Below are positions 1,370-55,081 of a DNA stretch of 64,000 nt, one piece after another (positions within the stretch are counted from its first letter, which is position 1; each line of letters starts with the position of its first letter). A program made the translations under genes and the position numbers. This DNA is from Candidatus Rokuibacteriota bacterium (lineage in GTDB: Bacteria > Methylomirabilota > Methylomirabilia > Rokubacteriales > CSP1-6): positions 1,579 through 65,578 of the forward strand of contig JACPSW010000001.1 of the NCBI GenBank assembly GCA_016193045.1, given 5' to 3'. The notes beneath the pieces are model-generated. The model was not told the DNA's origin. It was given only the letters and a program-made list of their open reading frames with translations, and ran no database searches.

Positions 1370-2602
1370 ATGGCTCCCTCCCGTCGCCCCCGCTTTTTCC
1401 TTCCTTTCCTGTCCCTGCTCATCCTGCTTCCGGGGGCCGAGGCTCAGAAACCCTGGACGGAGGGCGAGCAGCTCGATTTCCTGCGCCGGCACTGGGCGCG
1501 CCCCATTCCGCTCCAGGGCAACCCCCCCGCACGCTGGAGCCCGGTTGAGGCCTCCCTCCTTCCGGAGAGCTGCGGCACCTGTCATCCCGCCCAGCTCGCC
1601 GACTGGAAGGGAAGCCTCCACGCCAAGAGCATGGGGCCCGGGGTGAAGGGCCAGCTCGTCGAGCTACTGGCCAGCGATACCGAGTCGGCTCTCGGGTGCT
1701 ATACGTGCCACGCCCCGCTCGGCGAGCAGCAGGAGAAGATTGCGGGGGGCCAGGGCGGCTTCCTCCGCAATGCGGCGTTCGACGCCCGGCTCCAGGCCAC
1801 GGGCTTGGCCTGCCCGGCCTGCCATGTGCGCGGGCACCGGCGCTTCGGCCCGCCGAAGCGCGATGGATCGCTCGCGAGCGAGCCGCCGCGCGAGCGCCTT
1901 CCCCACAACGGCGTGACCCGCACGCCGGCGTTTCTCCGGGCGGAGTTCTGCAAGGACTGTCATCAGTTTTCCCCCGACGGCTTCGCCCTGAACGGCAAGC
2001 TCCTCGAGAATACCTACGCGGAGTGGACGTCGAGCCCCTTTGCTCGGGCGGGCATCCAGTGCCAGGACTGCCACATGCCCGGTCGCCGACATCTCTGGCG
2101 GGGGATCCACGACGCCGAGATGGTCCGGTCGGGCGTCGGCGTCGCCTTCTCCATCGACAGGGCGAGCTATGCGGTCGGCGATACGCTCGAGGCCCGGCTT
2201 ACCGTCACCAGCCGCAAGGTCGGCCACTACTTCCCGACGTACGTGACGCCTCGGGTGGTGGTGTCGGGCGAGCTGGTCGATCGATCGGGGCGCGTGGTGG
2301 CCGGAAGCCGGCAGGAGCAGATCATCGGGCGCGAGGTCACGCTGGACCTCGCGCGGGAGCTCTTCGATACGCGGCTGGCTCCCGGCGAGAGCGTGACGCT
2401 GCGCTACCGGCAGCGGCTGTCGAGCGCCGGGCTCAGGCTGAGGGTTGCGGTCACCGTCCATCCGGACCACTTCTACGTGGGGTTCTTCGAGGCCCTCCTG
2501 GCCGCCGGGGCGGGAAAGGGAACTCCTCAGGTCCGGGAGGCGCTTCGCGCCGCCCGAAGCTCTTCCTTCACTCTTTACGTCAACGAAGTGCCCCTGACCT
2601 GA
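1370..2602 (+). CDS. Pentaheme c-type cytochrome, secreted
   Basis: 410 aa with an N-terminal signal peptide. Five CxxCH haem-binding motifs (CGTCH, CYTCH, CPACH, CKDCH, CQDCH) lie in the first ~230 aa. The C-terminal half has no haem motif. Confidence 0.85.
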   Translation: MAPSRRPRFFLPFLSLLILLPGAEAQKPWTEGEQLDFLRRHWARPIPLQGNPPARWSPVEASLLPESCGTCHPAQLADWKGSLHAKSMGPGVKGQLVELLASDTESALGCYTCHAPLGEQQEKIAGGQGGFLRNAAFDARLQATGLACPACHVRGHRRFGPPKRDGSLASEPPRERLPHNGVTRTPAFLRAEFCKDCHQFSPDGFALNGKLLENTYAEWTSSPFARAGIQCQDCHMPGRRHLWRGIHDAEMVRSGVGVAFSIDRASYAVGDTLEARLTVTSRKVGHYFPTYVTPRVVVSGELVDRSGRVVAGSRQEQIIGREVTLDLARELFDTRLAPGESVTLRYRQRLSSAGLRLRVAVTVHPDHFYVGFFEALLAAGAGKGTPQVREALRAARSSSFTLYVNEVPLT

Positions 2603-3820: not shown

Positions 3821-4837
3821 ATGATGACGAACGCCGAGCGCGTCCAGGAATTCGTCGAGGCCTTCGGCAGCCTGAAAGGGGAAGTCGGGAAGATCATCGT
3901 CGGGTACGAGGAGGTCGTCACCGACGTCCTCGTGGGGCTCTTCGCCGGCGGGCACGTCCTCCTCGAAGGGGTGCCCGGCCTCGGCAAGACCCTCCTGATC
4001 AAGACGCTGGCCGCGGGGCTCGAGCTCTCGTTCTCCCGGATCCAGTTCACGCCCGACCTCATGCCCGCCGACATCATCGGCACGAACATCATTCTGGAGG
4101 ACCCCGAGGGGCGGAGGCACTTCCAGTTCCAGAAGGGGCCGATCTTCGGCCACATCCTTCTCGCCGACGAGGTGAACCGCGCCACCCCCAAGACCCAGTC
4201 GGCGCTGCTGGAGGGGATGCAGGAGGGGAGCGCTACCGTGTCCGGGATCTCGCACCCCCTGCCATCGCCGTTCTTCGTCCTGGCCACCCAGAACCCGATC
4301 GAGATGGAGGGCACGTACCCGCTTCCCGAAGCCCAGCTCGATCGCTTCCTCTTCAAGCTGCGCGTGACGTATCCGGGGCTGGAGGAGCTCAACGAGATCA
4401 TCGACCGGACTACCCGGGCCCGGGAGACGGAGGTCCGACGGGTCATGACGGGCCCCGAAGTGCTCCGATTCCGCGAGCTGGTCCGGGAGGTTCCCATCGC
4501 CGCTCACGTGCGCGAGCTGGCCTCCCTCATCGTCATGGCCACCCACCCCCAGTGGGAACACGCGCCGGACGTCACCCGGCGTTTCGTGCGCTACGGATCG
4601 AGTCCGCGGGGAGCCCAGGCGCTGGTGCTAGGGGGCAAGGTGCGCGCGCTCGCCCAGGGGCGTTACAACGTGAGCGTGGAAGATCTCAGAGCCGTGACGC
4701 GGGCGGCGCTGCGGCACCGGATCATCCTGAACTTCGAGGGCGAAGCGGAAGGCGTCGACGTGGACAGCCTGATCGGGGACGTGCTGGAACAGGCGGAGGC
4801 GATGAGCCATAGGGGGAAAGAGGTGTTCTTGCGGTAG
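3821..4837 (+). CDS. moxR: MoxR-family AAA+ ATPase
   Basis: 338 aa. Walker A GVPGLGKT, Walker B ILLADEVNRA, then TQSALLEGMQE and FFVLATQNPIEMEGTYPLPEAQLDRF, which are diagnostic MoxR/RavA-like motifs. Confidence 0.92.
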   Translation: MMTNAERVQEFVEAFGSLKGEVGKIIVGYEEVVTDVLVGLFAGGHVLLEGVPGLGKTLLIKTLAAGLELSFSRIQFTPDLMPADIIGTNIILEDPEGRRHFQFQKGPIFGHILLADEVNRATPKTQSALLEGMQEGSATVSGISHPLPSPFFVLATQNPIEMEGTYPLPEAQLDRFLFKLRVTYPGLEELNEIIDRTTRARETEVRRVMTGPEVLRFRELVREVPIAAHVRELASLIVMATHPQWEHAPDVTRRFVRYGSSPRGAQALVLGGKVRALAQGRYNVSVEDLRAVTRAALRHRIILNFEGEAEGVDVDSLIGDVLEQAEAMSHRGKEVFLR

Positions 4838-4855
4838 AGCCGGAGGGAACCGAGC

Positions 4856-6307
4856 ATGGCGGACGCAGACATCCTCGAACGGCTGGTCGCTCAGGTTGGC
4901 TGGCAGATCCGGCGGCGCCGCGCCGAGTTTTACGGGCTCCGCGGCCTCTTCTTCGGCGCGATTGTCGGGCTCGTCCCGCTCCTGCTGAAGGGCGCCGCGG
5001 GCCCCGCGGCGCCGCTGATGGCGCTGGGGGTGGTCCTCCTGGGCGCCGCGGTCGGTGCGCTGAGAGGGCTGGCCCTGCCGATTCCCGCCGCCGATGCCGC
5101 GCGCCTCGCCGACCGGGCGTTCGCGCTCCAAGATCGCGTGGCCACGGCCCTGGAGTGGGGAAGCCGGCCCGACCGGAGCCCGCTGGTGGATCTCCTGGTG
5201 GCGGACGTGACGGCCCGCCTCCAGGACCTGGATGGGCGCGGCGTCGTGCTGCGCCGCTGGCCGCGGGAGTTCCGGCTGCTCCCCATCCCGGCGGTCCTGA
5301 TGGTCCTTCTCACCCTCGTCCCGTCGATCCCGTTTCCGGCGGGGCGGCTGCCCGTCTTTTCCTCCTCCGATGACACCGAGCCCCCCGAGGAGCGCGGGTC
5401 GAAGGTCCTCACCGACGAGCGACCCAGGGTCGGCAAGCGGGAGCTGCTGCAGCGCGCGGAGATCATGGAGCGGAACCTCTCGGCCCGCGGGGGCGCCACC
5501 GGCGGCAGCCAGCCGGGGGATCTCGCCGCGCTCTTCAAGGACACCGCCCTCGCCGCCCAGCGTCCAGACTTCCAGAGCTTTCTCAAGAAGGGCGACGAGC
5601 GGCTGCGCATGCTCGAGCAGGTCGACCGCCTGCCGGACCTGAAGCGCGACTTCACGCAGAGCCAGTACAAGATGATCTTCCAGCGGCGGAAGGAGCTTTT
5701 CGGCGGCCTCCGGCCCGATCAGATCTCTCCGCAGAGGCTCCGGGAGTTGCTCGAGGAGATGCAGCGCATGGGGCGCAAGGGCGGAAACTGGGGCGGGGAC
5801 ATCGGGGAGGGGATGGAGGCGCTGGACTCTGGGCAGAGCGACCGGGCCATGGAGGCGATGGAGCGCGCGCTTTCGAAGATGCGGGCCATGGAAGAGCGCG
5901 GTCGGGACGGGCGCGGGCTCCGCGGCGGGCGGGAGGACGGCCGCCGGGGTGGCCGCGGCGGGGACCGGGGCGGGAGCGGGAGCGACATGGACGCCGATTT
6001 CGGCGAGGGCGAGGGACTCCTGCCGGGCAAGGGGCGGAATCCCAACCCCAAGGGGGACGCCACCGAGCGCTTGCGCGCGAATCCCTTCGACGCCGGGGTC
6101 GAGGGCGAGGCGCGCTCGGGCCGGAAGGAGGGGTACGACACCAATCTCCTCGGCAAGGGCACCAACGTGCCTTCCCGTCTTCAGTACATGGGCGTCTTCG
6201 GCCAGTACCGGAAGATGATGGAAGAGGCCATGGCGCGGGAGCAGGTCCCCCGGGACTACCAGTCGCAGGTGAAGGAGTACTTCGAGTCGCTGGAGGACCG
6301 CCGGTAG
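4856..6307 (+). CDS. Hypothetical membrane protein with long Arg/Gly/Asp/Glu-rich disordered region (Bat-like operon member)
   Basis: Two N-terminal hydrophobic segments (GLFFGAIVGLVPLLL, LMALGVVLLGAAVGAL) and a third around residue 150. C-terminal half is low complexity (RGRDGRGLRGGREDGRRGGRGGDRGGSGSD). Its stop overlaps the DUF58 start (TAGTG). Confidence 0.6.
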   Translation: MADADILERLVAQVGWQIRRRRAEFYGLRGLFFGAIVGLVPLLLKGAAGPAAPLMALGVVLLGAAVGALRGLALPIPAADAARLADRAFALQDRVATALEWGSRPDRSPLVDLLVADVTARLQDLDGRGVVLRRWPREFRLLPIPAVLMVLLTLVPSIPFPAGRLPVFSSSDDTEPPEERGSKVLTDERPRVGKRELLQRAEIMERNLSARGGATGGSQPGDLAALFKDTALAAQRPDFQSFLKKGDERLRMLEQVDRLPDLKRDFTQSQYKMIFQRRKELFGGLRPDQISPQRLRELLEEMQRMGRKGGNWGGDIGEGMEALDSGQSDRAMEAMERALSKMRAMEERGRDGRGLRGGREDGRRGGRGGDRGGSGSDMDADFGEGEGLLPGKGRNPNPKGDATERLRANPFDAGVEGEARSGRKEGYDTNLLGKGTNVPSRLQYMGVFGQYRKMMEEAMAREQVPRDYQSQVKEYFESLEDRR

Positions 6308-7212
6308 TGGGGGTTCGCCCGGTGGCGGGGGAGCGGGGGCAGGGTCTCCTCTCCGGCGACTTCCTGATCCAGCTGGAGCGGCTCGCGCTGCTCTCGAAGC
6401 GGACCTTCCGGGGCCGGGTCAAGGGCGAGCGCAAGAGCCCCCACCGCGGCAGCAGTGTCGAGTTTGTGGATTACCGGCCGTACGGGGTGGGGGACGACCT
6501 CCGCTACGTCGACTGGAACATTTTCGGCCGGCTGGACCGGCTCTACCTGAAGCTCTTCGTCGATGAGGAAGACCTCTGCTTGCACCTGCTGCTGGACGCC
6601 TCTGCCTCCATGGACTACGGCGAGCCGACCAAGCTCGAATACGGGCGCCGCGTGGCGGCGGCGCTCGGCTTCGTGGCGCTCGTGAACTACGAGCGCGTCG
6701 GCGTCGGCATCGTGAGGGACCGGGTGACGGAGGGATGGTCGCCGACCCGCGGCCGGTCTCAGGTCCTCCCGCTGCTCGACTTTCTGGGAAAGCTGCGCCC
6801 GGGCGGCGCGACGGGGCTGAACGAGGGTCTGGCAAGCTACGCGCGGCAGTCCCGGGACAGCGGCCTCGCCGTGGTGATCTCCGACCTCCTTGACCCCGGC
6901 GGATACGAAGCGGGACTCCGGGCGCTGCAGGAGCAACGCTTCGACGTGCACCTGGTCCACGTGCTGGCGCCCGAGGAGATGAACCCCGCCTTCAGCGGGG
7001 ATCTCCGGCTTCGGGACGCCGAGACCGGCGAGATCCGGGATCTGACGCTTGACGGCGAGGCGCGCCGCAGTTACGCTCGCCGCCTCCGGGAATTTCTCGA
7101 TGCGGCCGAGGGGTTCTGCCGCAGCCGCGAGATCAGCTATCATCGCGTCACGACCGACATCCCGGTTGAGGAGTTCGTGCTGAGACAGCTCAAGGGGCTC
7201 CTGCTCCTGTGA
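6307..7212 (+). CDS. DUF58 family protein (VWA-like, MoxR partner)
   Basis: GTG start overlaps the upstream stop. GSSVEFVDYRPYGVGDDLRYVDWNIFGRLDRLYLKLFVDEED is the hallmark DUF58 motif, followed by an LLLDASASM (MIDAS-like) segment. Confidence 0.9.
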   Translation: MGVRPVAGERGQGLLSGDFLIQLERLALLSKRTFRGRVKGERKSPHRGSSVEFVDYRPYGVGDDLRYVDWNIFGRLDRLYLKLFVDEEDLCLHLLLDASASMDYGEPTKLEYGRRVAAALGFVALVNYERVGVGIVRDRVTEGWSPTRGRSQVLPLLDFLGKLRPGGATGLNEGLASYARQSRDSGLAVVISDLLDPGGYEAGLRALQEQRFDVHLVHVLAPEEMNPAFSGDLRLRDAETGEIRDLTLDGEARRSYARRLREFLDAAEGFCRSREISYHRVTTDIPVEEFVLRQLKGLLLL

Positions 7213-10200
7213 GCTTCCTTTCTCCGCTCGCGTTCCTGCTCTTCACCCTGTCCGTCCCGCTCCTGCTCCTGTACTTCCTCAAGGTGCGGCGCCGGGAGAA
7301 GAGCGTGTCCAGCCTTCTCCTCTGGGATCCGGCGCTCCGGGACCGCGAGGCCTCCGCCTTCTTCCAGCGCCTCCAGCGCGATCCGCTCCTGCTTCTCCAG
7401 ATCCTCGCGCTGCTGGCGCTGACGCTGGCGCTGGCGCGGCCGGCGGTGACGCTCAAGGGCCAGGGCGCGCAGCGGACCGTGATCATCCTCGACACGTCGG
7501 CCTCCATGAAGGCCACCGACGTGGCGCCGTCCCGCTTCGTCGCGGCCCAGCGGGAAGCGCTGGCGTTTCTCAATCGTCTCCCCGCGGGCACCGAAGTCAT
7601 GGTGATCGAGGCGGGAATCCAGCCCCGGGTCCTCGTCGCCTTCTCGCGCGACCGCGAACGGATCACGTCAGCCCTCAGGGCTGTCGAAGCGCGAGACGTC
7701 ACGAATCGGTTGACGCAGGCGATCAGCACCGCCCGCGCGCTGACCGCCCAGGATCCGGCCGCTGAGATCCGCGTTTTCACCGACGGGGCGCATACGGTTT
7801 CGGTCGCCGACGGCCGTGACGATCCCCGGGTCCGCTGGGTGGGAGTCGCTCGCGGCGGGCGGAACGTGGGCATCACGAACCTCGCGATCCGCAAGACCTT
7901 CTACGGGGCCCTGGGCTACCAGGCGTTCGCCTCCGTCGTGAACTTCTCGGAGGAGCCTCAAGCGTTCACGTTCACCCTGGACCTGGACGACCAGCCGATC
8001 GCGGAGCAGTCGCTCACCCTGGATCCCCACGTGCGCCGGTCGGTGGTGGTGCCGTTCAGCCACAACGGCGCGGGCGTGGTGCGGGGCCGGCTCGGGATCG
8101 CTGACGACCTGAGCGCCGACAACGTGGCCCACGCCGTCATCCCGCAGCCCGGCCAGATGCGGGTGCTGCTGGTGAGCCCGGGCAACCTCTTCCTCGAGAA
8201 GGCCCTCGGGGTGGATCCCCAGGTGACGCTCGAGGTGCGCACCCCCGAGACCTACCAGGGCGGGATGGACGCCTTCGATGTGGTGGTGCTGGACAGCGTG
8301 AGCCCGCCGCGCATCGGGCCGGGCCGGTACGTCCTGATCAACACGACCCCGCCCGACGTGCCGCTGGAGAGCCTGGGCCGGCTCGAGCAGCCGGTGATCC
8401 TGGACTGGGATCGGTCGCACCCGGTCATGCGGTACGTGGACTTTTCCAAGGTGGTGATCGAGGAAGCGCTCCGCGTGCGCCCGCTGGCGGCCGGCAAGAC
8501 CCTGGTGGAGGCGGTCGGAGGGCCCCTGATCTACGTGCTCGAAGAGCCGCGGCGGAAGGCGGTCTTCTTCGGCTTCGACCTCTTCAAGACGGACTTCCCG
8601 CTGCGGGTCGCGTTTCCGGTCATGCTCTCCAACGGCCTCCGTTGGCTCCACCCGGCCGGCCTCGATCTGACCAGCTTCCAGCTGCGGGCGGGGGATCCCA
8701 TCCTTCTCCCGGTGGAGCACGGGGTCACCTCGGCCCGCGTGACCACCCCGTCGGGGCGGAGCGTGGAGGCGCAGGTCACGCGCGGGCTGGCCAGTTTTAC
8801 CGAAACCGGTCAGGCGGGCGTGTACACGGTCGGGACGTCCCGCGGGGAGACGCGCGTCGCCGTGAACCTTGCCAGCGCCGAGGAGTCGGACATCGCTCCC
8901 CGGCCGCTTCCGGCGCGCCCCGAGGCGCCTTCCCTCCAGGGCCCCGTCGTGCCGCTCCAGCGAGAACTGTGGGGGCTGTTCGTGCTGCTGGCGGCCCTTC
9001 TTCTCTCGGTTGAGGGGTACCTCTACTGGCGCCGCCAGACCTCCGGGCGCCCGGCGCTTCCCGCAGGCCTCGGCGATCGCTGGGCTCTCGGGTTGCGCTG
9101 CGCGCTCGTGGTGCTGCTCCTTGTCTCGCTGCTGAGGCCGGTGGTGCCGCGCTGGGTGGACCGGCTGAACGTCATGTTCCTCCTCGATGTGTCGGACAGC
9201 GTCAGCCTGGCGGCGCGGGAGCGCGCCTACCGTTTCGCGGCCCAGGCGCTGGCGGGGATGCAGGAGGGCGATCAGGCCGGGCTGATCATCTTCGGCCAGG
9301 AGGCCCTCGCGGAGCAGCCGCTCAGCCAGAAGCCCAAGGTGGAGCGGGTCCAGGTGCAGGTGGCCGGGCGCGGGACGGACCTGGCCCAAGCGATCCAGCT
9401 CGCGCTGGCCATGCTGCCGGCGGGCCACGCCAACCGGCTCGTCCTTCTGAGCGACGGGCGCCCGACCACGGGGAACGCGCTGGCCGCCGCGCAGGCCGCG
9501 AAGGACGCGGGCGCGGACATCCACTACGTCCCGACGCCGCTGACCTTCTCCCAGGAAGTGGTGGTGGAATCCATTCTGCTCCCCGAGGAGGTGAAGTTCG
9601 GCGAGCCGTTTGACGCCAAGGTCGTCGCCTGGAGCCAGCAGGATACCCAGGGCCGTTTGTCGCTCTTCCGGAACGGGGAGTTCCTCGGCTCCCAGGTGGT
9701 TCGCCTCTCCGCCGGCAAGAACGTGTACGCCTACCGCCAGTCGCTCGAGCAGAGCGGGATCCACGTGTACCAGGCCGCGATCGACGTGGAGGGGGACACC
9801 ATCGAGGAAAACAACCGGGCCGTGGGCACCGTCGTGGTCCGCGGGCGCCCGCAGGTGCTGCTCGCGGAGAAGGACCGCGCGCACGCGCAGTCCCTGAGCG
9901 CGGCCCTCCGCACCCAGCACATCGACGTGACGGTGGTCGATCCGGAGGGGATTCCCAAGGACCCGGCGGGGCTCCAGAAGTACGACGGCCTGATCCTGTC
10001 GAACGTGTCCTCCCTCAAGCTGACCAAGAGGCAGATGGAGCACATCCGGGACTACGTCCGCGACGGGGGCGGCGGACTCATCATGCTGGGCGGCGAGGAG
10101 AGCTTCGGTCTCGGCGGCTACTACCGGACGCCGATCGAGGAGGCCCTGCCGGTGACGATGGAGGTGAAGCAGCGCATCGAGATCCCCAGCCTGGCGGTGG

Positions 10201-11615
10201 TGCTGTCCGTCGATCGGTCGGGGTCGATGGCGATGTCCACCGACGAGAAGGTGACGAAGCTGGACATCGCGAAGGAGGCGGCGCACCTGGTCGTGGACCT
10301 CCTGGACGAGCGGAACGAGGTGGGCGTGATGAGCTGGGACACCGAGTTCCTCTGGGACGTCCCGATCCAGCCCGCCCGGAACCGGTCGGGCATCCACCAC
10401 TCGATCGCCACCGTCAAGGCGGGCGGGGGGACCGACGGCTATCCGGCCCTGAGGGAGTCGTACCGGGTCCTCTTCGACCGCCCGGCGCTGCTCAAGCACG
10501 TCATCTTCCTCTCCGACGGCCAGATGACGCGCGGGGACTTCGCCGGGCTCATCCGCCGCATGGTGAAGGACAAGATCCCCGTTTCCTCCGTCGCCATCGG
10601 AAAGGACTCCGACGTCGAGCTCATGTTCGACATCGCCAAGTGGGGGCGGGGGCGCTTCTACTACACCGAGGACACGCACACGATCCCTCGGATCTTCACG
10701 CTGGAGACCCAGCTGGCCTCCAAGGCCTCGCTGGTCGAGCAGCCGTTCAAGCCGATCCTGGCCGCCTCGAGCCACGAGGTCCTGCAGGACATCGACTGGA
10801 AGAACGCGCCGCCGCTCGGCGGCTACGTGGCGACCACGCTCAAGGGGACGGCGGAGCAGCTGCTCATGACCCACCAGGAGGATCCGCTGCTGGGCACGTG
10901 GCGGTACGGGCTCGGGCGCGCGGCCGCGTTCACCTCCGACGCGAAGGCGAAGTGGGCGGTGCTCTGGCTTCGATGGGGCGCCTTCAACAAGTTCTGGGGG
11001 CAGTTGACGCGCTGGACCCTGCGCACCGGGACCCGCAGCGACACCGTGGCCACGGTCGAGCGGCGGGACGGGATCGGGGAGGTGACCGTCGAGGCCGTCG
11101 ACCTGAGGGGAGAGTTCGTCAACTTCCTGGAGGCGCAGGTCGGCGTCATCGCTCCGGACAAGCGGCGGTTGGTCGTCGAGCTGGAGCAGGTGGCGCCGGG
11201 CCGGTACCGGGGCCGCTTCCCCGCCCCCGACGAGGGGGTATATCTCGTCGGGATGGCCCACCGCCGGGGCGAGAAGATGGTTGGCTCGCAGCTGGCGGGG
11301 TTGGTGGTACCCTATGCTCAGGAGTTCCGCGATCTCGGCGTGGACGAGCGCCTCTTGCGGGAGTTGTCGGAGCTCACCGGCGGTGGCGCAGTGGCTCAGC
11401 CGAAGGACGTGTTCCTCCAGGCCCGGCGGCGATCGCGCCTGGCGGTAGAACTCTGGCCCTGGCTTCTGGGGTGCGTGGCGGTGCTGCTCCTGCCGGAGGT
11501 GGCGCTGAGGCGGGTCGGCCCGGGGTTCCTGGCCGGCTTGGTCGCGCGGCTCCGGGGCCCGGGGAAGGGAAGGACGTTCCTTCGGCGCAAGGGAGGCGGG
11601 CATGAGGGAGCGTAA
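7209..11615 (+). CDS. Giant membrane protein: BatA-type N-terminal domain + VWA + GATase1-like + second VWA
   Basis: 1468 aa. N-terminus SFLSPLAFLLFTLSVPLLLLYFLKVRRRE (aerotolerance BatA N-terminal type). VIILDTSASM and FLLDVSDSVS / VLSVDRSGSM are VWA MIDAS motifs. LILSNVSS...DYVRDGGGGLIMLGG is GATase1-like. There are internal and C-terminal TM segments. GTGA overlap with DUF58. Confidence 0.85.
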   Translation: MSFLSPLAFLLFTLSVPLLLLYFLKVRRREKSVSSLLLWDPALRDREASAFFQRLQRDPLLLLQILALLALTLALARPAVTLKGQGAQRTVIILDTSASMKATDVAPSRFVAAQREALAFLNRLPAGTEVMVIEAGIQPRVLVAFSRDRERITSALRAVEARDVTNRLTQAISTARALTAQDPAAEIRVFTDGAHTVSVADGRDDPRVRWVGVARGGRNVGITNLAIRKTFYGALGYQAFASVVNFSEEPQAFTFTLDLDDQPIAEQSLTLDPHVRRSVVVPFSHNGAGVVRGRLGIADDLSADNVAHAVIPQPGQMRVLLVSPGNLFLEKALGVDPQVTLEVRTPETYQGGMDAFDVVVLDSVSPPRIGPGRYVLINTTPPDVPLESLGRLEQPVILDWDRSHPVMRYVDFSKVVIEEALRVRPLAAGKTLVEAVGGPLIYVLEEPRRKAVFFGFDLFKTDFPLRVAFPVMLSNGLRWLHPAGLDLTSFQLRAGDPILLPVEHGVTSARVTTPSGRSVEAQVTRGLASFTETGQAGVYTVGTSRGETRVAVNLASAEESDIAPRPLPARPEAPSLQGPVVPLQRELWGLFVLLAALLLSVEGYLYWRRQTSGRPALPAGLGDRWALGLRCALVVLLLVSLLRPVVPRWVDRLNVMFLLDVSDSVSLAARERAYRFAAQALAGMQEGDQAGLIIFGQEALAEQPLSQKPKVERVQVQVAGRGTDLAQAIQLALAMLPAGHANRLVLLSDGRPTTGNALAAAQAAKDAGADIHYVPTPLTFSQEVVVESILLPEEVKFGEPFDAKVVAWSQQDTQGRLSLFRNGEFLGSQVVRLSAGKNVYAYRQSLEQSGIHVYQAAIDVEGDTIEENNRAVGTVVVRGRPQVLLAEKDRAHAQSLSAALRTQHIDVTVVDPEGIPKDPAGLQKYDGLILSNVSSLKLTKRQMEHIRDYVRDGGGGLIMLGGEESFGLGGYYRTPIEEALPVTMEVKQRIEIPSLAVVLSVDRSGSMAMSTDEKVTKLDIAKEAAHLVVDLLDERNEVGVMSWDTEFLWDVPIQPARNRSGIHHSIATVKAGGGTDGYPALRESYRVLFDRPALLKHVIFLSDGQMTRGDFAGLIRRMVKDKIPVSSVAIGKDSDVELMFDIAKWGRGRFYYTEDTHTIPRIFTLETQLASKASLVEQPFKPILAASSHEVLQDIDWKNAPPLGGYVATTLKGTAEQLLMTHQEDPLLGTWRYGLGRAAAFTSDAKAKWAVLWLRWGAFNKFWGQLTRWTLRTGTRSDTVATVERRDGIGEVTVEAVDLRGEFVNFLEAQVGVIAPDKRRLVVELEQVAPGRYRGRFPAPDEGVYLVGMAHRRGEKMVGSQLAGLVVPYAQEFRDLGVDERLLRELSELTGGGAVAQPKDVFLQARRRSRLAVELWPWLLGCVAVLLLPEVALRRVGPGFLAGLVARLRGPGKGRTFLRRKGGGHEGA

Positions 11616-12948
11616 GGTCTGGATCGGTGTCCTGACCCTCGTCGCCGCGCTGGTCGCTCCGGCGGGGAGCGCGGCGGCGCCGGCCGTGCGATCGCTCCTG
11701 ATCCTGCCCTACCAGCCCGTGGACCTCGAGCGTGAAGAGCAGTGGCTCGGGGACGGCGTTGCCCACCTCCTGGCCCTCTCCCTCGTGAACCATCCCGGCC
11801 TCGTCCTCGTGGATCCCGCACGGATCAGGCGGCTCGGCCAGCCCGAGGCGTGGGGGGAAGAAGTGGTCCTGGGATTCGCCCGGATGGCGCGCGCGGACCT
11901 GGCCTTTTACGGGGAGATCAGGCGCGTCGCCGGCGATCTCGTCCTGCGGCCCCGCTACCTGGAATTCACGGGGACGGGCGCCGAGACGCGGGCCCTGCCG
12001 CCCATCGCGGTCCCCGACGCCCGGGTCCCGGAAGGGCTCAGCAGCCTGCCCCTGGCCTACGCGCGCGCGCTCAGCCTCGCGCCGACCGAGGGCGACGCCG
12101 CCAGGATCGAGAAGGGCGCGATGTCCACCAAATCGGCGCGCGCTTTCGAGGCCTACGTCAAGGGGCGTCACGCGGGGCTCCACGGCACGCAGGCGGGCAA
12201 CGAGGCGGCGGCGGACCTGCTCGGCAAGGCGGTCGAGCTGGACCCGGCCTTCGCCGCCGCCCAGTACGCGCTGGGCGTGGCGCATCTCGCCCTGGGCAAC
12301 CGCTGGAAGGCCGCCGCCCAGTTCCGCGCCTCGACCCAGCTCGATCCGGCATTCCCCGAGCCCTACAAGGCCCTGGGCGATCTGTTCCTCGCCGCGCCCC
12401 GCCGCCTCTTCGATCAGGCCGTGGAGGCCTATCAGAAGGCGCTGGAGCTCCGACCCTTTTACGCCGACGCGCACGTCGGGCTCGGGGACGCGCGGGCGGC
12501 CAAGGGCGAGGTGGACGCGGCCATCGCGAGCTATCAGAAGGCGCTGCTCTACAATCCGGCGAACCCCAAGGTCCACATGAGCCTGGGGAAGATCTACTAC
12601 GGCGAGAAGGGGCTCTACTACGAGTCGGTGAGCTCCTACCAGAAGGCGATCGAGCTCGATCCGCAGTTCCTCGAGGCGCGCATGGGGCTCGGCGAAGTGT
12701 ACGAGGACAAAGGGCTGTACCCGGAGGCCATCCGGGAGTACCGGAAGGTCGTGGAGCTGGACCCCCAGCACACCGGCGGGCTGTACAACCTCGCGCTCGT
12801 GTACGAGAAGGTGGATCCCCGGGAGGCCATCGCCCACTGGGAGCACTACATTCAGGTGGCGGCGCCGCTCCCGTCAGAGAAGGACTGGGTGGACGTGGCC
12901 CGCCAGCATCTGAGGAAGCTCAAGATCCAGGTGGAGGGGAATCGCTGA
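11602..12948 (+). CDS. Secreted TPR-repeat protein (BatC/BatE-like)
   Basis: Signal peptide MRERKVWIGVLTLVAALVAPAGSAAA. The C-terminal half has at least 6 tandem 34-aa TPR units (AxxxYxKALELxPxxAxAHxxLG...). 14-nt overlap with the upstream gene. Confidence 0.85.
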   Translation: MRERKVWIGVLTLVAALVAPAGSAAAPAVRSLLILPYQPVDLEREEQWLGDGVAHLLALSLVNHPGLVLVDPARIRRLGQPEAWGEEVVLGFARMARADLAFYGEIRRVAGDLVLRPRYLEFTGTGAETRALPPIAVPDARVPEGLSSLPLAYARALSLAPTEGDAARIEKGAMSTKSARAFEAYVKGRHAGLHGTQAGNEAAADLLGKAVELDPAFAAAQYALGVAHLALGNRWKAAAQFRASTQLDPAFPEPYKALGDLFLAAPRRLFDQAVEAYQKALELRPFYADAHVGLGDARAAKGEVDAAIASYQKALLYNPANPKVHMSLGKIYYGEKGLYYESVSSYQKAIELDPQFLEARMGLGEVYEDKGLYPEAIREYRKVVELDPQHTGGLYNLALVYEKVDPREAIAHWEHYIQVAAPLPSEKDWVDVARQHLRKLKIQVEGNR

Positions 12949-12950
12949 GG

Positions 12951-13190
12951 CTAAATTCCCAGCAGGCGCTCGAGCCGCGCCCGGTCAAATCCCACGACCA
13001 CCTCGTCGTCGACGAGGATCACCGGCACGGCCATCTGTCCCGTTCGCCGCACCAGTTCCTCCCGCGCCTCCGAATCGTCCATGACGTTCCTGTCCGCGAA
13101 CGTCACGCCCTTGGACGAAAGAAACTCTTTCGTCGCGCGGCAGGGGCGTCAGGTCGGCGTCGAAAAGACGACCACTCGGCGCTGGGTCAC
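12951..13190 (-). CDS. Glutaredoxin-like protein (YruB/NrdH-like fold) with in-frame TGA at the first active-site position: candidate selenoprotein (UxxC)
   Basis: GTG 13190 follows AGGAGG with an 8-nt spacer. Translation VTQRRVVVFSTPT-[TGA 13151..13149]-RPCRATKEFLSSKGVTFADRNVMDDSEARELVRRTGQMAVPVILVDDEVVVGFDRARLERLLGI. The text after the TGA stays in frame and matches the glutaredoxin fold (TxCPxC...K..L...G..F...dv......el.....g...VP.i...g..vvGFd). The track splits this gene because of the TGA. Confidence 0.6.
13114..13134 (-). promoter_or_regulatory. Candidate bacterial SECIS hairpin downstream of the in-frame UGA
   Basis: On the mRNA strand: GACGAAAGA-GUU-UCUUUCGUC, a perfect 9-bp stem with a 3-nt G/U-containing apical loop. 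It starts 15 nt after the UGA and lies inside the coding sequence. Confidence 0.45.
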
Positions 13191-13312
13191 GCGGCTCACC
13201 TCCTGGAGGTCGAGCCCATTCTCCCACAGGGAGTGACGAGCGGCAACTTGACAGCTCGAAGTCCTCGTCGCTATTGTTCTGTGGGCTCATTCACAAGCGG
13301 AGAGGGGGACAT

Positions 13313-14299
13313 TTGAGCGACCTCAGGAAAGATCCGACGCGTGGCCAGTGGGTGCTGGTGCGACCGCGAGGGGGCGCCGAGCCCGCGGGGGCCGAGTGCC
13401 CCTTCTGTCCCGGCAACGAGGCGAGCACCCCGCCGGAGATCGCGGCCTATCGGAAGGAGGGGTCCGCTCCCAACAGCCCGGGCTGGCAGGTGCGGGTCAT
13501 CCCGGAAGCAGACCCGTACTTCCGGGTGGAGTGGGACTTGGTGCGTGAAGGCGTGGGGATGTACGACAAGATCACGCCCCGCGGGGCCAGCGAGCTGATC
13601 ATCGAGAGCCCGAGCCACGAGGACACGCCAGCCGGGATGGGCCCCGACCAGCTGGAGCGCGTCCTTTGGATGTACCGGGACCGGCTCGAGGACCTGAAGC
13701 GCGACCCGGCGATCCGCGACATCCTGATCACGCGCCGGTACGGCAAGCCGGGGTCGCGGATCAGCCATCCCTACTCCCGGGTGACCGCGATTCCCGTGAT
13801 CTTCGACGACCTGCGCCGGGAGCTGCGCGAATCCCGGGAGTACTATCAGTACAAACGGCGCTGCCTCTTCTGCGACATCCTCCGCCAGGAGCAGGCCGAC
13901 GACGATCGGGTGGTGCGGCTGACACCGTTCTTCCTGGTGGTGGTGCCCTACGCGGCGCGCGCGCCCTTCGAGACATGGGTCCTGCCCCGGCAGCACTCGT
14001 GCGCGTACGAAACACTTTCTCCCGAGGCTGCCGCGGACTTGGCCCGGCTGCTGGGCGCATATTTCGGCGTCCTGGCGACGCGATTGGGAAACCCCTCCTT
14101 CGAGCTCGTGCTCCATACGGCCCCGAATCTCGCCGCCAAGATCCTCCAGGACGAGTGGGCGACGATCGTCGACGACTACCACTGGCACCTCGAGATCGCC
14201 GTCCAGCCCGAGCGGGCCACGCGGGTGGGAGGGATCGCCGTCAACGAGGTGCCTCCGGAGGAGGCCGCCCGCCGGCTCCGGGAGGCCTGGGGGACTTAA
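13313..14299 (+). CDS. galT: Galactose-1-phosphate uridylyltransferase family (HIT superfamily) protein
   Basis: N-terminus (TTG 13313) SDLRKDPTRGQWVLV...CPFCPGNE is the zinc-binding motif of GalT-type enzymes. A second half-domain has FCDI and YHWHLEI (HxH-type nucleotidyl-transfer motif). The track ORF start 13274 is also a TTG. 13313 is preferred because of the upstream GGAGAGGGGG and the homologue-like N-terminus. Confidence 0.78.
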   Translation: MSDLRKDPTRGQWVLVRPRGGAEPAGAECPFCPGNEASTPPEIAAYRKEGSAPNSPGWQVRVIPEADPYFRVEWDLVREGVGMYDKITPRGASELIIESPSHEDTPAGMGPDQLERVLWMYRDRLEDLKRDPAIRDILITRRYGKPGSRISHPYSRVTAIPVIFDDLRRELRESREYYQYKRRCLFCDILRQEQADDDRVVRLTPFFLVVVPYAARAPFETWVLPRQHSCAYETLSPEAAADLARLLGAYFGVLATRLGNPSFELVLHTAPNLAAKILQDEWATIVDDYHWHLEIAVQPERATRVGGIAVNEVPPEEAARRLREAWGT

Positions 14300-17824: not shown

Positions 17825-19640
17825 TCTCGGCACCACCAACAGCCTCGTTGCCTACATGGAGGGGGGCTTCCCCAAGGTCATCCCCGACGCTGAGGGACAC
17901 GTCCTCCTCCCTTCGGTGGTCGGGTTCACCGCCGACGGGATCCTGGTGGGAGACGCCGCCAAGCGGCAGCTCGTCCGGAACCCGACCCGGACCATCTACT
18001 CGGTCAAGCGCCTCATGGGGAAGGGCTACGACGACGTCAAGGAGGAGCTGCGCTACTTCCCCTTTCACGTCGTGCCGAGCGACGAGGTGGTGAAGATCAG
18101 GGTCGCCGACCGTGAGGTCACGCCCCCCGAGGTCTCGGCGCTGATCCTGCGATCCCTGAAGGAGCGGGCCGAGGCCCACCTGGGCGAGGTCGTGACCAAG
18201 GCCGTCATCACGGTCCCTGCCTACTTCAACGACAGCCAGCGCCAGGCTACGAAGGACGCCGGCCGGATCGCGGGGCTTGAGGTCCTCCGGATCGTCAACG
18301 AGCCGACCGCCGCCTCGCTCGCGTACGGGCTTCATCGTCTCAAAGGGGGGACCGTCGCCGTCTACGATCTGGGGGGCGGGACCTTCGACATCTCGATTCT
18401 CAGGGTGAAAGATGGGATTTTCGAGGTGCTGGCCACGAACGGCAATACCCATCTCGGCGGCGACGACTTCGACCGGGCCCTGGTGGACTGGCTCCTGGCC
18501 GATATCGAGACGCGCCACGGCGCGGACCTCCGCGCGGATCTGGAAGCCCTGCAGGAGCTCCGGCTCGGGGCCGAGGCGGCCAAGTGCCGCCTGTCGTTCG
18601 AGGAGCGGACGGTGCTCACGATTCCATTCGCCCAGCACGGGTTCACCTACCGGCGGGAGATCTCGCGCGCGGAGCTCGAGACCCTGATCGAGCCGCTGGT
18701 CCAGCAGACGCTGGGGCCCTGCCGGCTCGCCCTGGCCGACGCCGGCCTGAGCGCGGCGCAGATCGACGAGGTCGTGCTCGTGGGAGGGTCCACGCGGGTT
18801 CCCCTGGCGAGGCGGCGCGTCCAGGAGCTCTTCGGGAAGCTGCCCCACAGCCAGCTGAACCCGGACGAGGTCGTCGCGGTGGGGGCGGCGGTCCAGGCCG
18901 ATATCCTGGCCGGCGGCATCACCAACATGCTCTTGCTCGACGTCACTCCGCTCTCTCTCGGGATCGAGACCCTGGGGGGGGGGATGAGTGTCCTGATCCC
19001 ACGGAACACGACGATTCCCACGAGCGCCAAGGAGTTGTTCACCACTTCGGTGGACGGACAGACGGTGGTGGACATGCACGTCCTCCAGGGCGAGCGGGAG
19101 CTGGTCAAGAACAACCGGTCCCTCGCCCGCTTCGAGCTCTCCGGCATCGACCCGATGCCCGCGGGGATGCCCCGCATCGAGGTGACCTTCCTGATCGACG
19201 CGAACGGGATCCTTCAAGTCAACGCGAAGGAGCTCAGGACCGGGAAGGCCGCCTCCATCGAGGTCAAGCCCTCGTACGGGCTCACCGATGCCGAAGTGGA
19301 GCGGATGATCGAGGAGTCCTTCATCCATGCCGAGGAGGACGTGGCCTCGCGGCTCCTGATCGAGGCCCGCAATGAGGCCGATACGGTCATCCGCGCCACG
19401 GAGCGGGCGTTGGGCCAAGGGAGCGGGCTGATCGGCCAGGAGGAAACGGCGCAGATCACCGGGGCGCTCGCCGCACTGAAGGCCGTCCGCGACGGGAGTG
19501 ACCGCGACGCCATCCGCGAGGCCACCGAGCGCCTGAATCAATCCACGCTTCACCTGGCCGAGATTCTGATGGATTCCGCGCTCAAGGAGGCGCTGACCTC
19601 GAAGCGGGTGACGGAGGCCCTGGGAAAGCCGGAGCGATGA
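17802..19640 (+). CDS. hscA: Fe-S cluster assembly chaperone HscA (Hsp70 family)
   Basis: 612 aa. IVGIDLGTTNS, AVITVPAYFND, DLGGGTFDISIL and VLVGGSTRVP are Hsp70 signatures. Position within the isc operon. Confidence 0.95.
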   Translation: MPRIVGIDLGTTNSLVAYMEGGFPKVIPDAEGHVLLPSVVGFTADGILVGDAAKRQLVRNPTRTIYSVKRLMGKGYDDVKEELRYFPFHVVPSDEVVKIRVADREVTPPEVSALILRSLKERAEAHLGEVVTKAVITVPAYFNDSQRQATKDAGRIAGLEVLRIVNEPTAASLAYGLHRLKGGTVAVYDLGGGTFDISILRVKDGIFEVLATNGNTHLGGDDFDRALVDWLLADIETRHGADLRADLEALQELRLGAEAAKCRLSFEERTVLTIPFAQHGFTYRREISRAELETLIEPLVQQTLGPCRLALADAGLSAAQIDEVVLVGGSTRVPLARRRVQELFGKLPHSQLNPDEVVAVGAAVQADILAGGITNMLLLDVTPLSLGIETLGGGMSVLIPRNTTIPTSAKELFTTSVDGQTVVDMHVLQGERELVKNNRSLARFELSGIDPMPAGMPRIEVTFLIDANGILQVNAKELRTGKAASIEVKPSYGLTDAEVERMIEESFIHAEEDVASRLLIEARNEADTVIRATERALGQGSGLIGQEETAQITGALAALKAVRDGSDRDAIREATERLNQSTLHLAEILMDSALKEALTSKRVTEALGKPER

Positions 19641-19990
19641 CATACAAGGTCACGTTCCTCCCCATGAACATCACGGTGGAGGTGGATCCGGAGAAGTTCC
19701 CCCTCCAGGAGGACGGCCGGCCGGGCTCCGTCCTGGACATCGCCCTCGGGAACAACATCTCGCTCCAGCACAACTGCGGCGGCAAGTGCGCGTGCACGAC
19801 CTGCCACGTGATCGTGAAGGAAGGAATGGAGAACCTGTCCAAGATGGAGGAGGATGAGGAAGACCGCCTGGACACGGCCGAGGGCCTCACGCTCCATTCC
19901 CGGCTGGGGTGCCAGGCCGTGGTGAGCGGCGACGTGGTGGTCGAGATCCCGCCGTCGGGGCGGGGCGGGTTCACGCCCCCCGGCCATTGA
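19637..19990 (+). CDS. fdx: ISC-type [2Fe-2S] ferredoxin (adrenodoxin-like Fdx)
   Basis: CGGKCACTTCHV ... SRLGCQ is the four-Cys pattern of Fdx. ATGA overlap with hscA. Confidence 0.9.
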   Translation: MTYKVTFLPMNITVEVDPEKFPLQEDGRPGSVLDIALGNNISLQHNCGGKCACTTCHVIVKEGMENLSKMEEDEEDRLDTAEGLTLHSRLGCQAVVSGDVVVEIPPSGRGGFTPPGH

Positions 19991-20016
19991 CGGCGAGCGA
20001 CGAAGCGAGGGCTCCC

Positions 20017-20223
20017 GTGGGACTGACCTGGAAGGATGCGGAAGACATCGCGATAGCGCTCGCGGAGAGGTTTCCCGACACAGACCCGCTGGGAATCCGG
20101 TTCACCGACCTCCACAAGTGGGTGACGGAACTGGAGGACTTTTCGGACGATCCGAAGGCGTCCAACGAGGGCATCCTCGAGGCCATCCAGATGGCCTGGC
20201 TCGAGGAGGTGCGAAATCGGTAA
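20017..20223 (+). CDS. iscX: Fe-S assembly protein IscX (YfhJ-like)
   Basis: GTG 20017 in the frame of track ORF 19909-20223. GLTWKDAEDIAIALAERFPDTDPLGIRFTDLHKWVTELEDFSDDPKASNEGILEAIQMAWLEE is the typical acidic ~66-aa IscX sequence. Confidence 0.75.
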   Translation: MGLTWKDAEDIAIALAERFPDTDPLGIRFTDLHKWVTELEDFSDDPKASNEGILEAIQMAWLEEVRNR

Positions 20224-20226
20224 GGC

Positions 20227-20454
20227 TTACCAGGAGATGACCTGGTCGGCGGCGAAGATCAGGTCGAGGAGTTCCGCGTACGTGAGCGTGTCCGGGAGGC
20301 GGCGCACCTGGACCCCGGATGGCAGCGGGGGCGGCTCGGTATCCTCTCGGAGGACGACGGTGAGGGTGGTGCCGGGATCGCGGCTCTGCTGCTCGATGGC
20401 CGTCAGGGCGTGTTCGGGCACCGGCGCCTTGAGCAGGTGGAGGACGTGGGGCAT
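20227..20454 (-). CDS. DsrH/TusB-like sulfur relay protein
   Basis: 75 aa from an internal ATG (MPHVLHLLKAP...DQVISW). The ATG overlaps the upstream stop (TGATG). Size, N-terminal M.HvLh pattern and position after the DsrE/DsrF-like genes fit DsrH. Confidence 0.6.
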   Translation of the reverse strand: MPHVLHLLKAPVPEHALTAIEQQSRDPGTTLTVVLREDTEPPPLPSGVQVRRLPDTLTYAELLDLIFAADQVISW

Positions 20455-20813
20455 CAGAATATCAGAGAGCGGCGGGAGCCGGTGATGAGCCCGGCGATCT
20501 CCTCGCGGGAGACCGGGACGGTCGGGTGGTCCTCCGCGTTCCACCCCTCCCTCGCTGCGGGCATCGCCGACCGGTCGATGTGGAAGGGAATGCCCAGCTT
20601 CGCCAGCGTGCCGCGGTACTTGGCGATGTCGTCGCCGTCCACGAGATCGTCGGTGTCCGTGTCGAGGAGATGGACGGCGGGACCCGTCAGGACGATCGTC
20701 ACGTCGTTCTCGCCCGCGGCCACTCCGAGCGCGATGCGGAGGGCCTCGTTGGCCCGATGGGAGCGGCGGGGATCTTCCGAGATGAGCACCAGAACGGGGA
20801 GCGTCTCTTCCAC
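20454..20813 (-). CDS. DsrF/TusC-like sulfur relay protein
   Basis: From GTG 20813: VEETLPVLVLISEDPRRSHRANEALRIALGVAAGENDVTIVLTGPAVHLL... is a DsrE/F-fold pattern (short beta strand, then a helix with ALR.A). The start is uncertain (the track ORF extends to 20999). Confidence 0.65.
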   Translation of the reverse strand: MEETLPVLVLISEDPRRSHRANEALRIALGVAAGENDVTIVLTGPAVHLLDTDTDDLVDGDDIAKYRGTLAKLGIPFHIDRSAMPAAREGWNAEDHPTVPVSREEIAGLITGSRRSLIF

Positions 20814-20817
20814 GAAC

Positions 20818-21183
20818 CTAGTTCCCGTACGGGGCCAAATGGCGAGCCAGACAAGGCCCGAGGGAGGAGCCGACCGGAGCGTACGCAGTTGTACGTGAGG
20901 ATCGGCGACGAACCAGGCCGCAGTAGTTGAGGCGGTCGGGATCGGAGAGGGGGATGCGGCGCTTCTGGCAGCCGTAGGCGCAGACGAAGAGCTTGGCACC
21001 GCGCGTCGCCAGCTCCTGGACCTCCGGCCGGTCCTTGGCCAGCACCCCGTCGTCGATCAGGTAGAGGTAGAGGTCCACGCCCCGGTCGAGCGCCGCCTTC
21101 GACAGGCGGACGGCGGTCGCGAGGTTCGGGTCCTCGGGTTTCGTGGAGAGGAGCAGGCCCAGTTTGCGCTTGCGGAGATCCAC
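20818..21183 (-). CDS. DsrE/TusD-like sulfur relay protein
   Basis: MDLRKRKLGLLLSTKPEDPNLATAVRLSKAALDRGVDLYLYLIDDGVL...GAKLFVCAYGCQKRRI is a DsrE-family fold with the conserved Cys region. The last ~30 aa look non-homologous (see findings). Confidence 0.7.
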   Translation of the reverse strand: MDLRKRKLGLLLSTKPEDPNLATAVRLSKAALDRGVDLYLYLIDDGVLAKDRPEVQELATRGAKLFVCAYGCQKRRIPLSDPDRLNYCGLVRRRSSRTTAYAPVGSSLGPCLARHLAPYGN

Positions 21184-21262
21184 GGCGGTTCGAGCTTAGC
21201 ATCCGGTCTCCGCGGCAGTCAATTGTTGACACCGCGGGGCAATCTTTATAGGGTGGAGTGAC

Positions 21263-55070: not shown

Positions 55071-55081
55071 GAGCCAGCCGA

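Follow-up and report, generated by a model that had tools for sequence, protein, structure and literature searches.

An in-frame TGA in a glutaredoxin-like gene of a Candidatus Rokuibacteriota bacterium: a probable selenocysteine codon followed by a SECIS-type hairpin

The stretch of 64,000 nucleotides analysed here (contig JACPSW010000001.1 of assembly GCA_016193045.1, Candidatus Rokuibacteriota bacterium; hereafter the window, meaning the whole stretch at its full length) carries on its minus strand, at 13190..12951, a reading frame for a small glutaredoxin-like protein (Grx) that is interrupted by a TGA at codon 14. The question raised by this locus is whether the TGA ends translation, as stop-to-stop calling of open reading frames (ORFs) takes it to do, or is read as selenocysteine (Sec). 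Comparison of the frame with its relatives makes it very probable that it is a functional gene for a 79-residue Sec-containing redoxin of glutaredoxin fold, of the YruB / C. oremlandii Grx1 type, the UGA of which would be decoded by way of a hairpin serving as selenocysteine insertion sequence (SECIS).

An earlier note, made from the letters of the window, had proposed a selenoprotein at this place on the basis of a minus-strand GTG that follows an AGGAGG and opens a 79-codon frame, a glutaredoxin-like translation and the continuation of the conserved frame behind the TGA. The GTG, the AGGAGG and the frame were all recovered where the note had put them (Table 1). The frame translates as VTQRRVVVFSTPT*RPCRATKEFLSS...VVVGFDRARLERLLGI*, the first asterisk marking the TGA and the second the TAG, with 65 sense codons 3' of the TGA. 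With U entered as C, the Pfam profile PF00462 (Glutaredoxin) was matched at positions 1-60 of 60, straight across the TGA and starting at residue 6 of the full frame, with E = 3.9e-20 and a score of 72.3 bits (gathering threshold 22.9), which bears out the glutaredoxin-like nature of the product. The G+C content of third codon positions (GC3) is 0.85 ahead of the TGA and 0.83 behind it, both of which are values expected of genes in a genome with 68% GC. The position of the TGA at the first active-site cysteine, also claimed in the note, was confirmed by alignment of homologues, but the motif is U-R-P-C, a UxPC motif of thioredoxin-like kind, and not the CPxC that had been suggested. When the window was scanned for other selenoprotein candidates, nothing remained apart from the TGA of Grx and an ordinary junction between genes (52505).

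The same TGA is widespread among relatives of the gene. Scanning one genome of each species gave 56 loci, and no fewer than 27 sequences besides that of the window, drawn from at least six phyla, proved to have TGA at this codon (20 genome loci, the second gene of locus L016, and loci L044, L057 and L060-L063), while 34 other homologues carry Cys (TGC or TGT) there; among the closest genome loci, about half have the TGA form. Counted as six phyla were Methylomirabilota, Chloroflexota, Bacillota, Acidobacteriota, Syntrophaceae and Spirochaetota. The four closest loci of the scan (L001-L004, Methylomirabilota/Rokuibacteriota, 64-78% identity) all read PT-TGA-GPC, and many loci of the other five groups read T-TGA-P[YWH]C, G-TGA-[LM]FC or T-TGA-APC. 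The gene order BatA/VWA, TPR, Grx (on the opposite strand), GalT-like, IscR, IscS is kept in L001-L004 and in L060-L063; since L001-L004 share this order with the window, they are positional orthologues. The closest public relatives found, L062 (GCA_040960975.1, JBFONB010000037.1) and L063 (JGI 3300044499), share about 92% DNA identity with the window across some 18 kb, their genes running in the same order and being for the most part equal in length, and both retain the GTG start, a GGAGG at the same place, the TGA and U-R-P-C. The coding sequences of the window and L062 differ at 19 codons and have neither indels nor additional stops. Of these differences 11 are synonymous and 8 non-synonymous, and three of the former, at codons 7, 9 and 10, precede the TGA. 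Differences that are rich in synonymous changes and free of indels indicate purifying selection across the TGA and rule out decay, and the in-frame conservation over 65 codons described in the earlier note is thereby upheld.

An in-frame stop at codon 14 is nevertheless the classic signature of a nonsense mutation, and no Sec machinery was seen in the window, so that a pseudogene, or a TGA arising from a sequencing or assembly error, with no full-length protein made, has to be weighed. Such an origin is at odds with a TGA that recurs in this very position in 27 or more independent assemblies from six phyla, with the intact frame and its coding-like GC3 on either side of the TGA, with the mostly synonymous, indel-free substitutions against relatives of 92% identity and with a hairpin, described below, that is under selection at SECIS distance. 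Frame decay, an observation which the earlier note had named as speaking against its proposal, was absent from the TGA-containing orthologues. Because both the TGA and the frame are conserved, a pseudogene or an error is effectively refuted as an explanation.

The distribution of TGA and Cys over the homologues also bears on how the codon is read. Orthologues show either TGA or TGC/TGT at the aligned codon, the Sec/Cys replacement pattern that had been expected of a bacterial selenoprotein, and a protein as close as 78% identity to the product of the window (P0001, locus L058, motif TCAPC) has TGT at this place. The UGA could in principle be read through or reassigned without Sec, as Trp, Gly or Cys, by a variant code or near-cognate suppression, and would then give a WxxC or CxxC product; one public protein call (P0004) does have the orthologous TGA as W, and the Sec machinery of the source genome is a presumed one. 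However, TGA is the commonest ordinary stop of the window, ending 22 of the 41 genes with Pfam support, and the genetic code is therefore standard, with TGA not reassigned. The code-4 call P0004 passes a real stop as well and is hence an artefact, a nucleophile is needed at this position and homologues have strictly TGA or Cys, which is the signature of a Sec/Cys pair, and a TGA-specific hairpin of SECIS type would be unnecessary for read-through of another kind. Reading of the UGA as an amino acid other than Sec is thus very unlikely.

A tandem pair of paralogues was observed in a cultured member of the Bacillota, Brassicibacter mesophilus DSM 24659 (L016:1119-1330 and L016:1539-1727), in which a Sec form (SNT-TGA-PHC) lies directly upstream of a Cys form (SNTCGYC). 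This strain could be used as an experimental model.

Insertion of Sec in bacteria would call for a SECIS element behind the UGA, and the perfect 9-bp hairpin with a GUU loop that had been reported in the earlier note was found as described, GACGAAAGA-GUU-UCUUUCGUC. Its first base is the 15th nucleotide after the UGA, the distance from UGA to apical loop is 23 nt, and it overlaps codons A19 to S26, which include the peptide TKEFLSS. The published bacterial SECIS (bSECIS) model asks for a loop of 3-9 nt on a stem of 4-16 bp, a G within the first two loop positions, a distance to the UGA of 16-37 nt and a folding energy no higher than -7.5 kcal/mol (PMC13188914). On all four counts the hairpin falls within the model, with a loop of 3 nt starting G-U, a stem of 9 bp, a spacing of 23 nt and folding energies of -9.8 kcal/mol when the hairpin is taken by itself and -12.5 kcal/mol when a 33-nt segment is folded. 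Perfect hairpins of at least 9 bp with G in the loop number 21 in 128 kb, both strands of the window taken together, and the probability that a given UGA has such a hairpin within the SECIS distance window is about 0.004. Like the SECIS of the E. coli fdhF type and the bSECISearch model, it is a stem-loop within the coding region after the UGA, with a small G-U loop and a spacing of 16-37 nt. It has no sequence similarity to the E. coli elements and no matching Rfam model, and it is family-specific and tied to the KEFLS codons. The fdhF SECIS of E. coli has a bulged U, whereas the hairpin of the window is without one.

Among TGA forms the hairpin is conserved. All 21 that were examined first fold a stem of 8-9 bp at the same offset, with GUU as loop except for GUA in L023/L024 and AGUU in L038. 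The sole exception among all TGA forms examined is the Sec paralogue of L016, which is without a KEFLS-type hairpin; roughly 33 nt behind its UGA lies a candidate SECIS of other sequence, CCUUUC-GGA-GAAAGG. The hairpin lies on the conserved peptide TKEFLSS, which makes the Cys forms an essential control. It is absent from most of them, and the mean local folding energy over nt 13-45 after the first active-site codon is -10.2 kcal/mol for TGA forms versus -5.5 kcal/mol for the 34 Cys forms (Mann-Whitney p = 7e-8, computed over related sequences and so to be read with the reservation given below). In an alignment of 20 sequences (A1), 5 of the 9 pairs change on both sides, none of 500 shuffles reached the observed covariation score, and registers slid along the stem were all much worse. 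A covariance model built from A1 gave a single match in the window, the Grx site, with 61.4 bits, and among sequences outside the training set it ranked the Sec locus L057 first (48.1 bits). Conservation and covariation of the hairpin among TGA forms, as well as its agreement with the SECIS model, had been put forward as checks on the proposal, and each came out in its favour.

A stem-loop that sits exactly on a peptide motif which Cys forms share could still be an accidental by-product of encoding TKEFLSS, with the UGA decoded by other means, and the almost invariant stem of the Rokubacterial sequences gives little covariation in that clade. The codons themselves argue otherwise. The Cys form L005 has the same KEFLS but encodes it by the non-pairing AAA GAG UUC CUC UCC; its local folding energy is -4.7 kcal/mol. 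In TGA forms the codons are AAA, UUU and CUU, all of them rare in this genome of 68% GC; in the genes of the window AAA, TTT and CTT account for 8.5%, 11.5% and 4.8% of the respective K, F and L codon families, and the joint probability of all three together is about 5e-4. Among close relatives Phe9, outside the hairpin, switches between TTT and TTC, while Phe23, in the loop, never does, and the only change in the stem of L063 is a synonymous AAA to AAG, by which an A-U pair becomes G.U. Where the peptide differs (QEFLAQ, REFLSY, KEFLHQ), both arms of the stem change together and the pairing is preserved by compensation. In the close Cys form L058 (L058:583-630), a change of UUU to UUC has undone the pair that closes the loop. 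A by-product of the peptide is accordingly a highly improbable origin for the hairpin. In another Cys form, L043 of the Dormiibacterota (L043:3031-3078, motif CMPC), the hairpin is intact, and to judge from their sequences L043 and L058 look like recent Sec-to-Cys conversions.

As the earlier note had pointed out, stop-to-stop ORF calling misses the gene: it lists only the 51-codon fragment of Table 1. It could be held that such a shortened downstream ORF, for instance the 51 residues from GTG 13106, is the real gene, without an active site and with the upstream segment untranslated; this matches the output of gene callers, and NCBI and JGI name such fragments. The fragment is without the beta-1 strand and the entire active site, however, and because of this it could not form the fold. 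In addition, the segment VVVFSTPT upstream of the TGA is conserved at the protein level, with the synonymous changes at codons 7, 9 and 10, the strong ribosome-binding site precedes GTG 13190 and not 13106, and the start points of public records vary (43-89 residues), following whatever start codon exists. A genuine gene confined to the downstream ORF is consequently scarcely credible. Records of this kind are the rule for the family. About 110 of the 120 best homologues in protein databases are N-terminally short, at 43-89 residues, as TGA forms would be expected to appear; the short calls that were checked begin with 'MPC...', directly after the TGA, and the names given by NCBI and JGI to the short fragments are 'NrdH-redoxin' or 'glutaredoxin'.

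A different fault was observed in the call P0004 (L057:289-570, JGI 3300077288), which is apparently of full length and has 'W' at the aligned position, where the DNA has TGA. It also runs through the true TGA stop, which shows that the contig was translated with code 4 and that the W is an artefact. P0033 has the same 'W' at that position, probably by the same artefact.

With the TGA taken as a Sec codon, the gene has its nearest known counterpart in a native selenoprotein. Among solved structures, 7C10 and 7C12 come nearest (E = 2.5e-20; over 76 residues, 50% of positions are identical and 74% similar), and pairwise comparison with the protein of the 7C10 type gave E = 1e-28, C13 of 7C10 aligning with U14. 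The active site U14-R-P-C17, the cis-Pro motif V55-P56 and G67-F68-D69 line up with 7C10 in the sequence alignment. Grx1 of Clostridium oremlandii (cGrx1), with Sec13 and C16, is called a native selenoprotein in both PMC4479559 and PMC7642778, and these papers also describe dithiol and monothiol Sec-to-Cys forms of it (in PMC4479559 'Grx1 U13C/C16S'). The chains of 7C10 and 7C12 carry C13/C16 and C13/S16, from which 7C10, 7C12 and 7C13 are presumably the Grx1 of Clostridium (Alkaliphilus) oremlandii OhILAs. The Grx of the window resembles cGrx1 in its similar length, in the equivalent Sec (U13 in cGrx1, U14 here) with a Cys three residues on, and in the motifs KEFLS, MAVPVI and EVVVGFDR, which both have; a hairpin like that of the window is also present in a related orthologue from the Bacillota (L023/L024, T-U-PHC). 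It differs in its motif, since cGrx1 has U-P-H-C while the window, L062 and L063 have U-R-P-C and L001-L004 have U-G-P-C, so that the pattern U-P-x-C was not found here; the Chloroflexota and Bacillota orthologues have U-P-[YWH]-C. The host also differs, being a high-GC member of the Methylomirabilota and not a Clostridium. cGrx1 has been reported to reduce the selenoprotein MsrA (PMC4479559), whereas no msrA lies near the Grx of the window, which adjoins the isc operon.

The Grx family with UxxC (PF00462) is among the known prokaryotic selenoprotein families in a 2026 review (PMC13188914), and is catalogued in a selenoproteome survey as well (PMC9312934). Like its catalogued members, the protein of the window has UxxC near the N-terminus and a single Sec, and forms a Sec/Cys pair with Cys homologues; compared with the catalogued family, the clade of the window is one in which the TGA form is common and public records show short fragments. 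Other families were considered and rejected. To NrdH-redoxin (TIGR02194) there is a likeness in the small glutaredoxin fold and the GF(D/R) motif near the C-terminus, and a thioredoxin-like reductant is plausible, but the score was 52.3 bits against a cut-off of 85.75, the motif is URPC and not CVQC, and there is no nrdEF neighbourhood. The UXX-star selenoproteins also remained below their cut-offs, with 54.8 bits against 66 for NF041212, 29.8 against 72 for NF041114 and 35.8 against 100 for NF041211.

Several results weigh against a Sec-containing Grx decoded through this hairpin. ARAGORN found no tRNA in the 64-kb window, and there was no SelA, SelB or SelD among the approximately 50 window ORFs scanned with Pfam, ORFs in gaps included. 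Neither a tRNA-Sec (59 orthologue loci fetched) nor selA, selB or selD were present in the fetched loci. Rfam has no curated family at the hairpin, either at gathering thresholds over the whole window or at E <= 10 on 13050-13220, where only noise was returned. An extended lower helix enclosing the UGA was predicted in the window and was dropped, as it has several broken pairs and no compensatory support in six Rokubacterial sequences. Within the Rokubacterial clade the stem hardly varies, and for this reason the covariation evidence comes from other phyla. The Sec/Cys statistics were calculated over related sequences that are not independent, and are for that reason inflated to an unquantified degree. 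Lastly, YruB (TIGR02196), the best of 18 families and a Cys protein unlike the Sec form of the window, was matched over positions 1-73 of 74 with 87.2 bits (U entered as C), which is short of the curated cut-off (88.55) by 1.35 bits. In the literature searched for direct evidence on Sec in Rokubacteria or Methylomirabilis, nothing pertinent came up beyond the 2026 review; there, a metagenome-assembled genome of the Methylomirabilota is predicted to hold 63 selenoprotein genes (PMC13188914), and the source genome of the window would be expected to encode Sec machinery of its own.

Established knowledge of bacterial Sec decoding and of thioredoxin-fold redoxins suggests how the gene would work. 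Translation would start at GTG 13190 behind the strong Shine-Dalgarno sequence, and the UGA at codon 14 would be decoded as Sec instead of as a stop, the hairpin acting as SECIS with its G-U loop bound by SelB-GTP-Sec-tRNA(Sec) while the UGA is in the A site. The ribosome would then melt the hairpin and read T-K-E-F-L-S-S. In the finished protein, Sec14 would stand at the N-terminal end of helix 1 of the thioredoxin fold, its selenolate may attack a disulfide, sulfenate or selenenylsulfide of the substrate, Cys17 would resolve the mixed Se-S intermediate, and the oxidised selenenylsulfide would be re-reduced by an upstream reductant. The likeness of UxPC to the CGPC of thioredoxin hints, by analogy, that this reductant is perhaps thioredoxin reductase rather than glutathione.

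A wider reading of the family can be offered only tentatively, and we hold it to be possible but rather unlikely as a whole. The Methylomirabilota would have a distinct UxPC subclade (UGPC/URPC) fixed between the Bat/TPR cluster and the isc operon, and the SECIS module encoded by KEFLS would be common to the TGA forms of at least six phyla. A single cassette of Sec-Grx plus SECIS, either ancient or spread horizontally, would then have undergone repeated Sec-to-Cys reversions, the Rokubacterial branch having perhaps a reductant of the thioredoxin-reductase type or a role in Fe-S biogenesis. If the cassette reading is true, L043 and L058 resemble intermediates of such reversions.

Table 1. Coordinates of the features of the Grx locus within the window
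Feature	Position	Strand	Description and basis
Selenoprotein glutaredoxin-like coding sequence (predicted)	12951..13190	-	79 residues including Sec14; translation, PF00462, TIGR02196, GC3
Shine-Dalgarno AGGAGG	13204..13199	-	8-nt spacer before the start codon; direct sequence reading
GTG start codon	13190..13188	-	aligned with the ATG of L001 (MTEPRVTVF...) and the GTG of L062/L063
In-frame TGA, codon 14	13151..13149	-	probable Sec codon, first position of U-R-P-C
TGC, Cys17	13142..13140	-	resolving cysteine of UxxC; column invariant in alignment A1 (T10 G11)
TAG stop	12953..12951	-	closes the frame of 79 sense codons
Upper stem-loop of bacterial SECIS (candidate)	13134..13114	-	5' arm 13134..13126, GUU loop 13125..13123, 3' arm 13122..13114
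51-residue GTG fragment	12951..13106	-	sole product of stop-to-stop ORF calling here

Grx is the only minus-strand gene of its neighbourhood. It is convergent with the TPR gene (11602..12948), with 2 nt between both stop codons, and divergent from a GalT/HIT-like gene (13274..14299), 3' of which the isc operon follows with IscR, IscS, IscU, IscA, HscB and HscA. The position beside this operon may or may not carry functional meaning. Clustering of neighbouring genes over all loci yielded nothing informative beyond Rokubacterial synteny and was swamped by spurious high-GC ORFs. A promoter-like site on the plus strand at 13248-13277 (TTGACA, 18 nt, TATTGT; 10 of 12 matches) overlaps TTG 13274, at which the GalT-like gene was taken to begin; that gene may in fact start further downstream.

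Some other features were observed elsewhere in the window. The ORF at 1370-2602 (+) has several CxxCH motifs and weak Pfam matches to MtrC/MtrF, cytochrome c554 and c7, and probably encodes a multihaem cytochrome; it adjoins the Bat-like cluster of MoxR, DUF58, BatA-VWA and TPR genes at 3821-12948. The region 19640-21230, of about 1.6 kb, contains overlapping ORFs of moderate GC3 on both strands, at 20224-20895 (+), 20457-21056 (-) and 20821-21195 (-), none of them with a Pfam match. The GcpE/IspG ORF at 55034-57280 (+), of 748 codons, includes a Hint domain (residues 316-377) and a LAGLIDADG_3 homing-endonuclease domain (residues 546-623) behind positions 1-295 of the GcpE profile, and appears to be an isoprenoid-pathway gene with an intein.

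The Grx of the window is a member of an established and experimentally verified selenoprotein family, its phylum had been described before as one with many selenoproteins, and the understanding of Sec decoding and of glutaredoxins is left unchanged by it. It adds a data point for the use of selenium in thiol redox chemistry by Methylomirabilota of soil and groundwater. The main value of the finding is the correction of a systematic annotation error across several phyla: most of the clade is stored in public databases as fragments of 43-66 residues or is mistranslated with W, the active-site residue is missing from the records, and the selenoprotein clade is as a result under-counted in Methylomirabilota, Chloroflexota and other phyla. 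The family-specific SECIS (UGA, 14 nt, RYGAARGA-GUU-UCUUYCRY) provides a simple and specific detector for its members.

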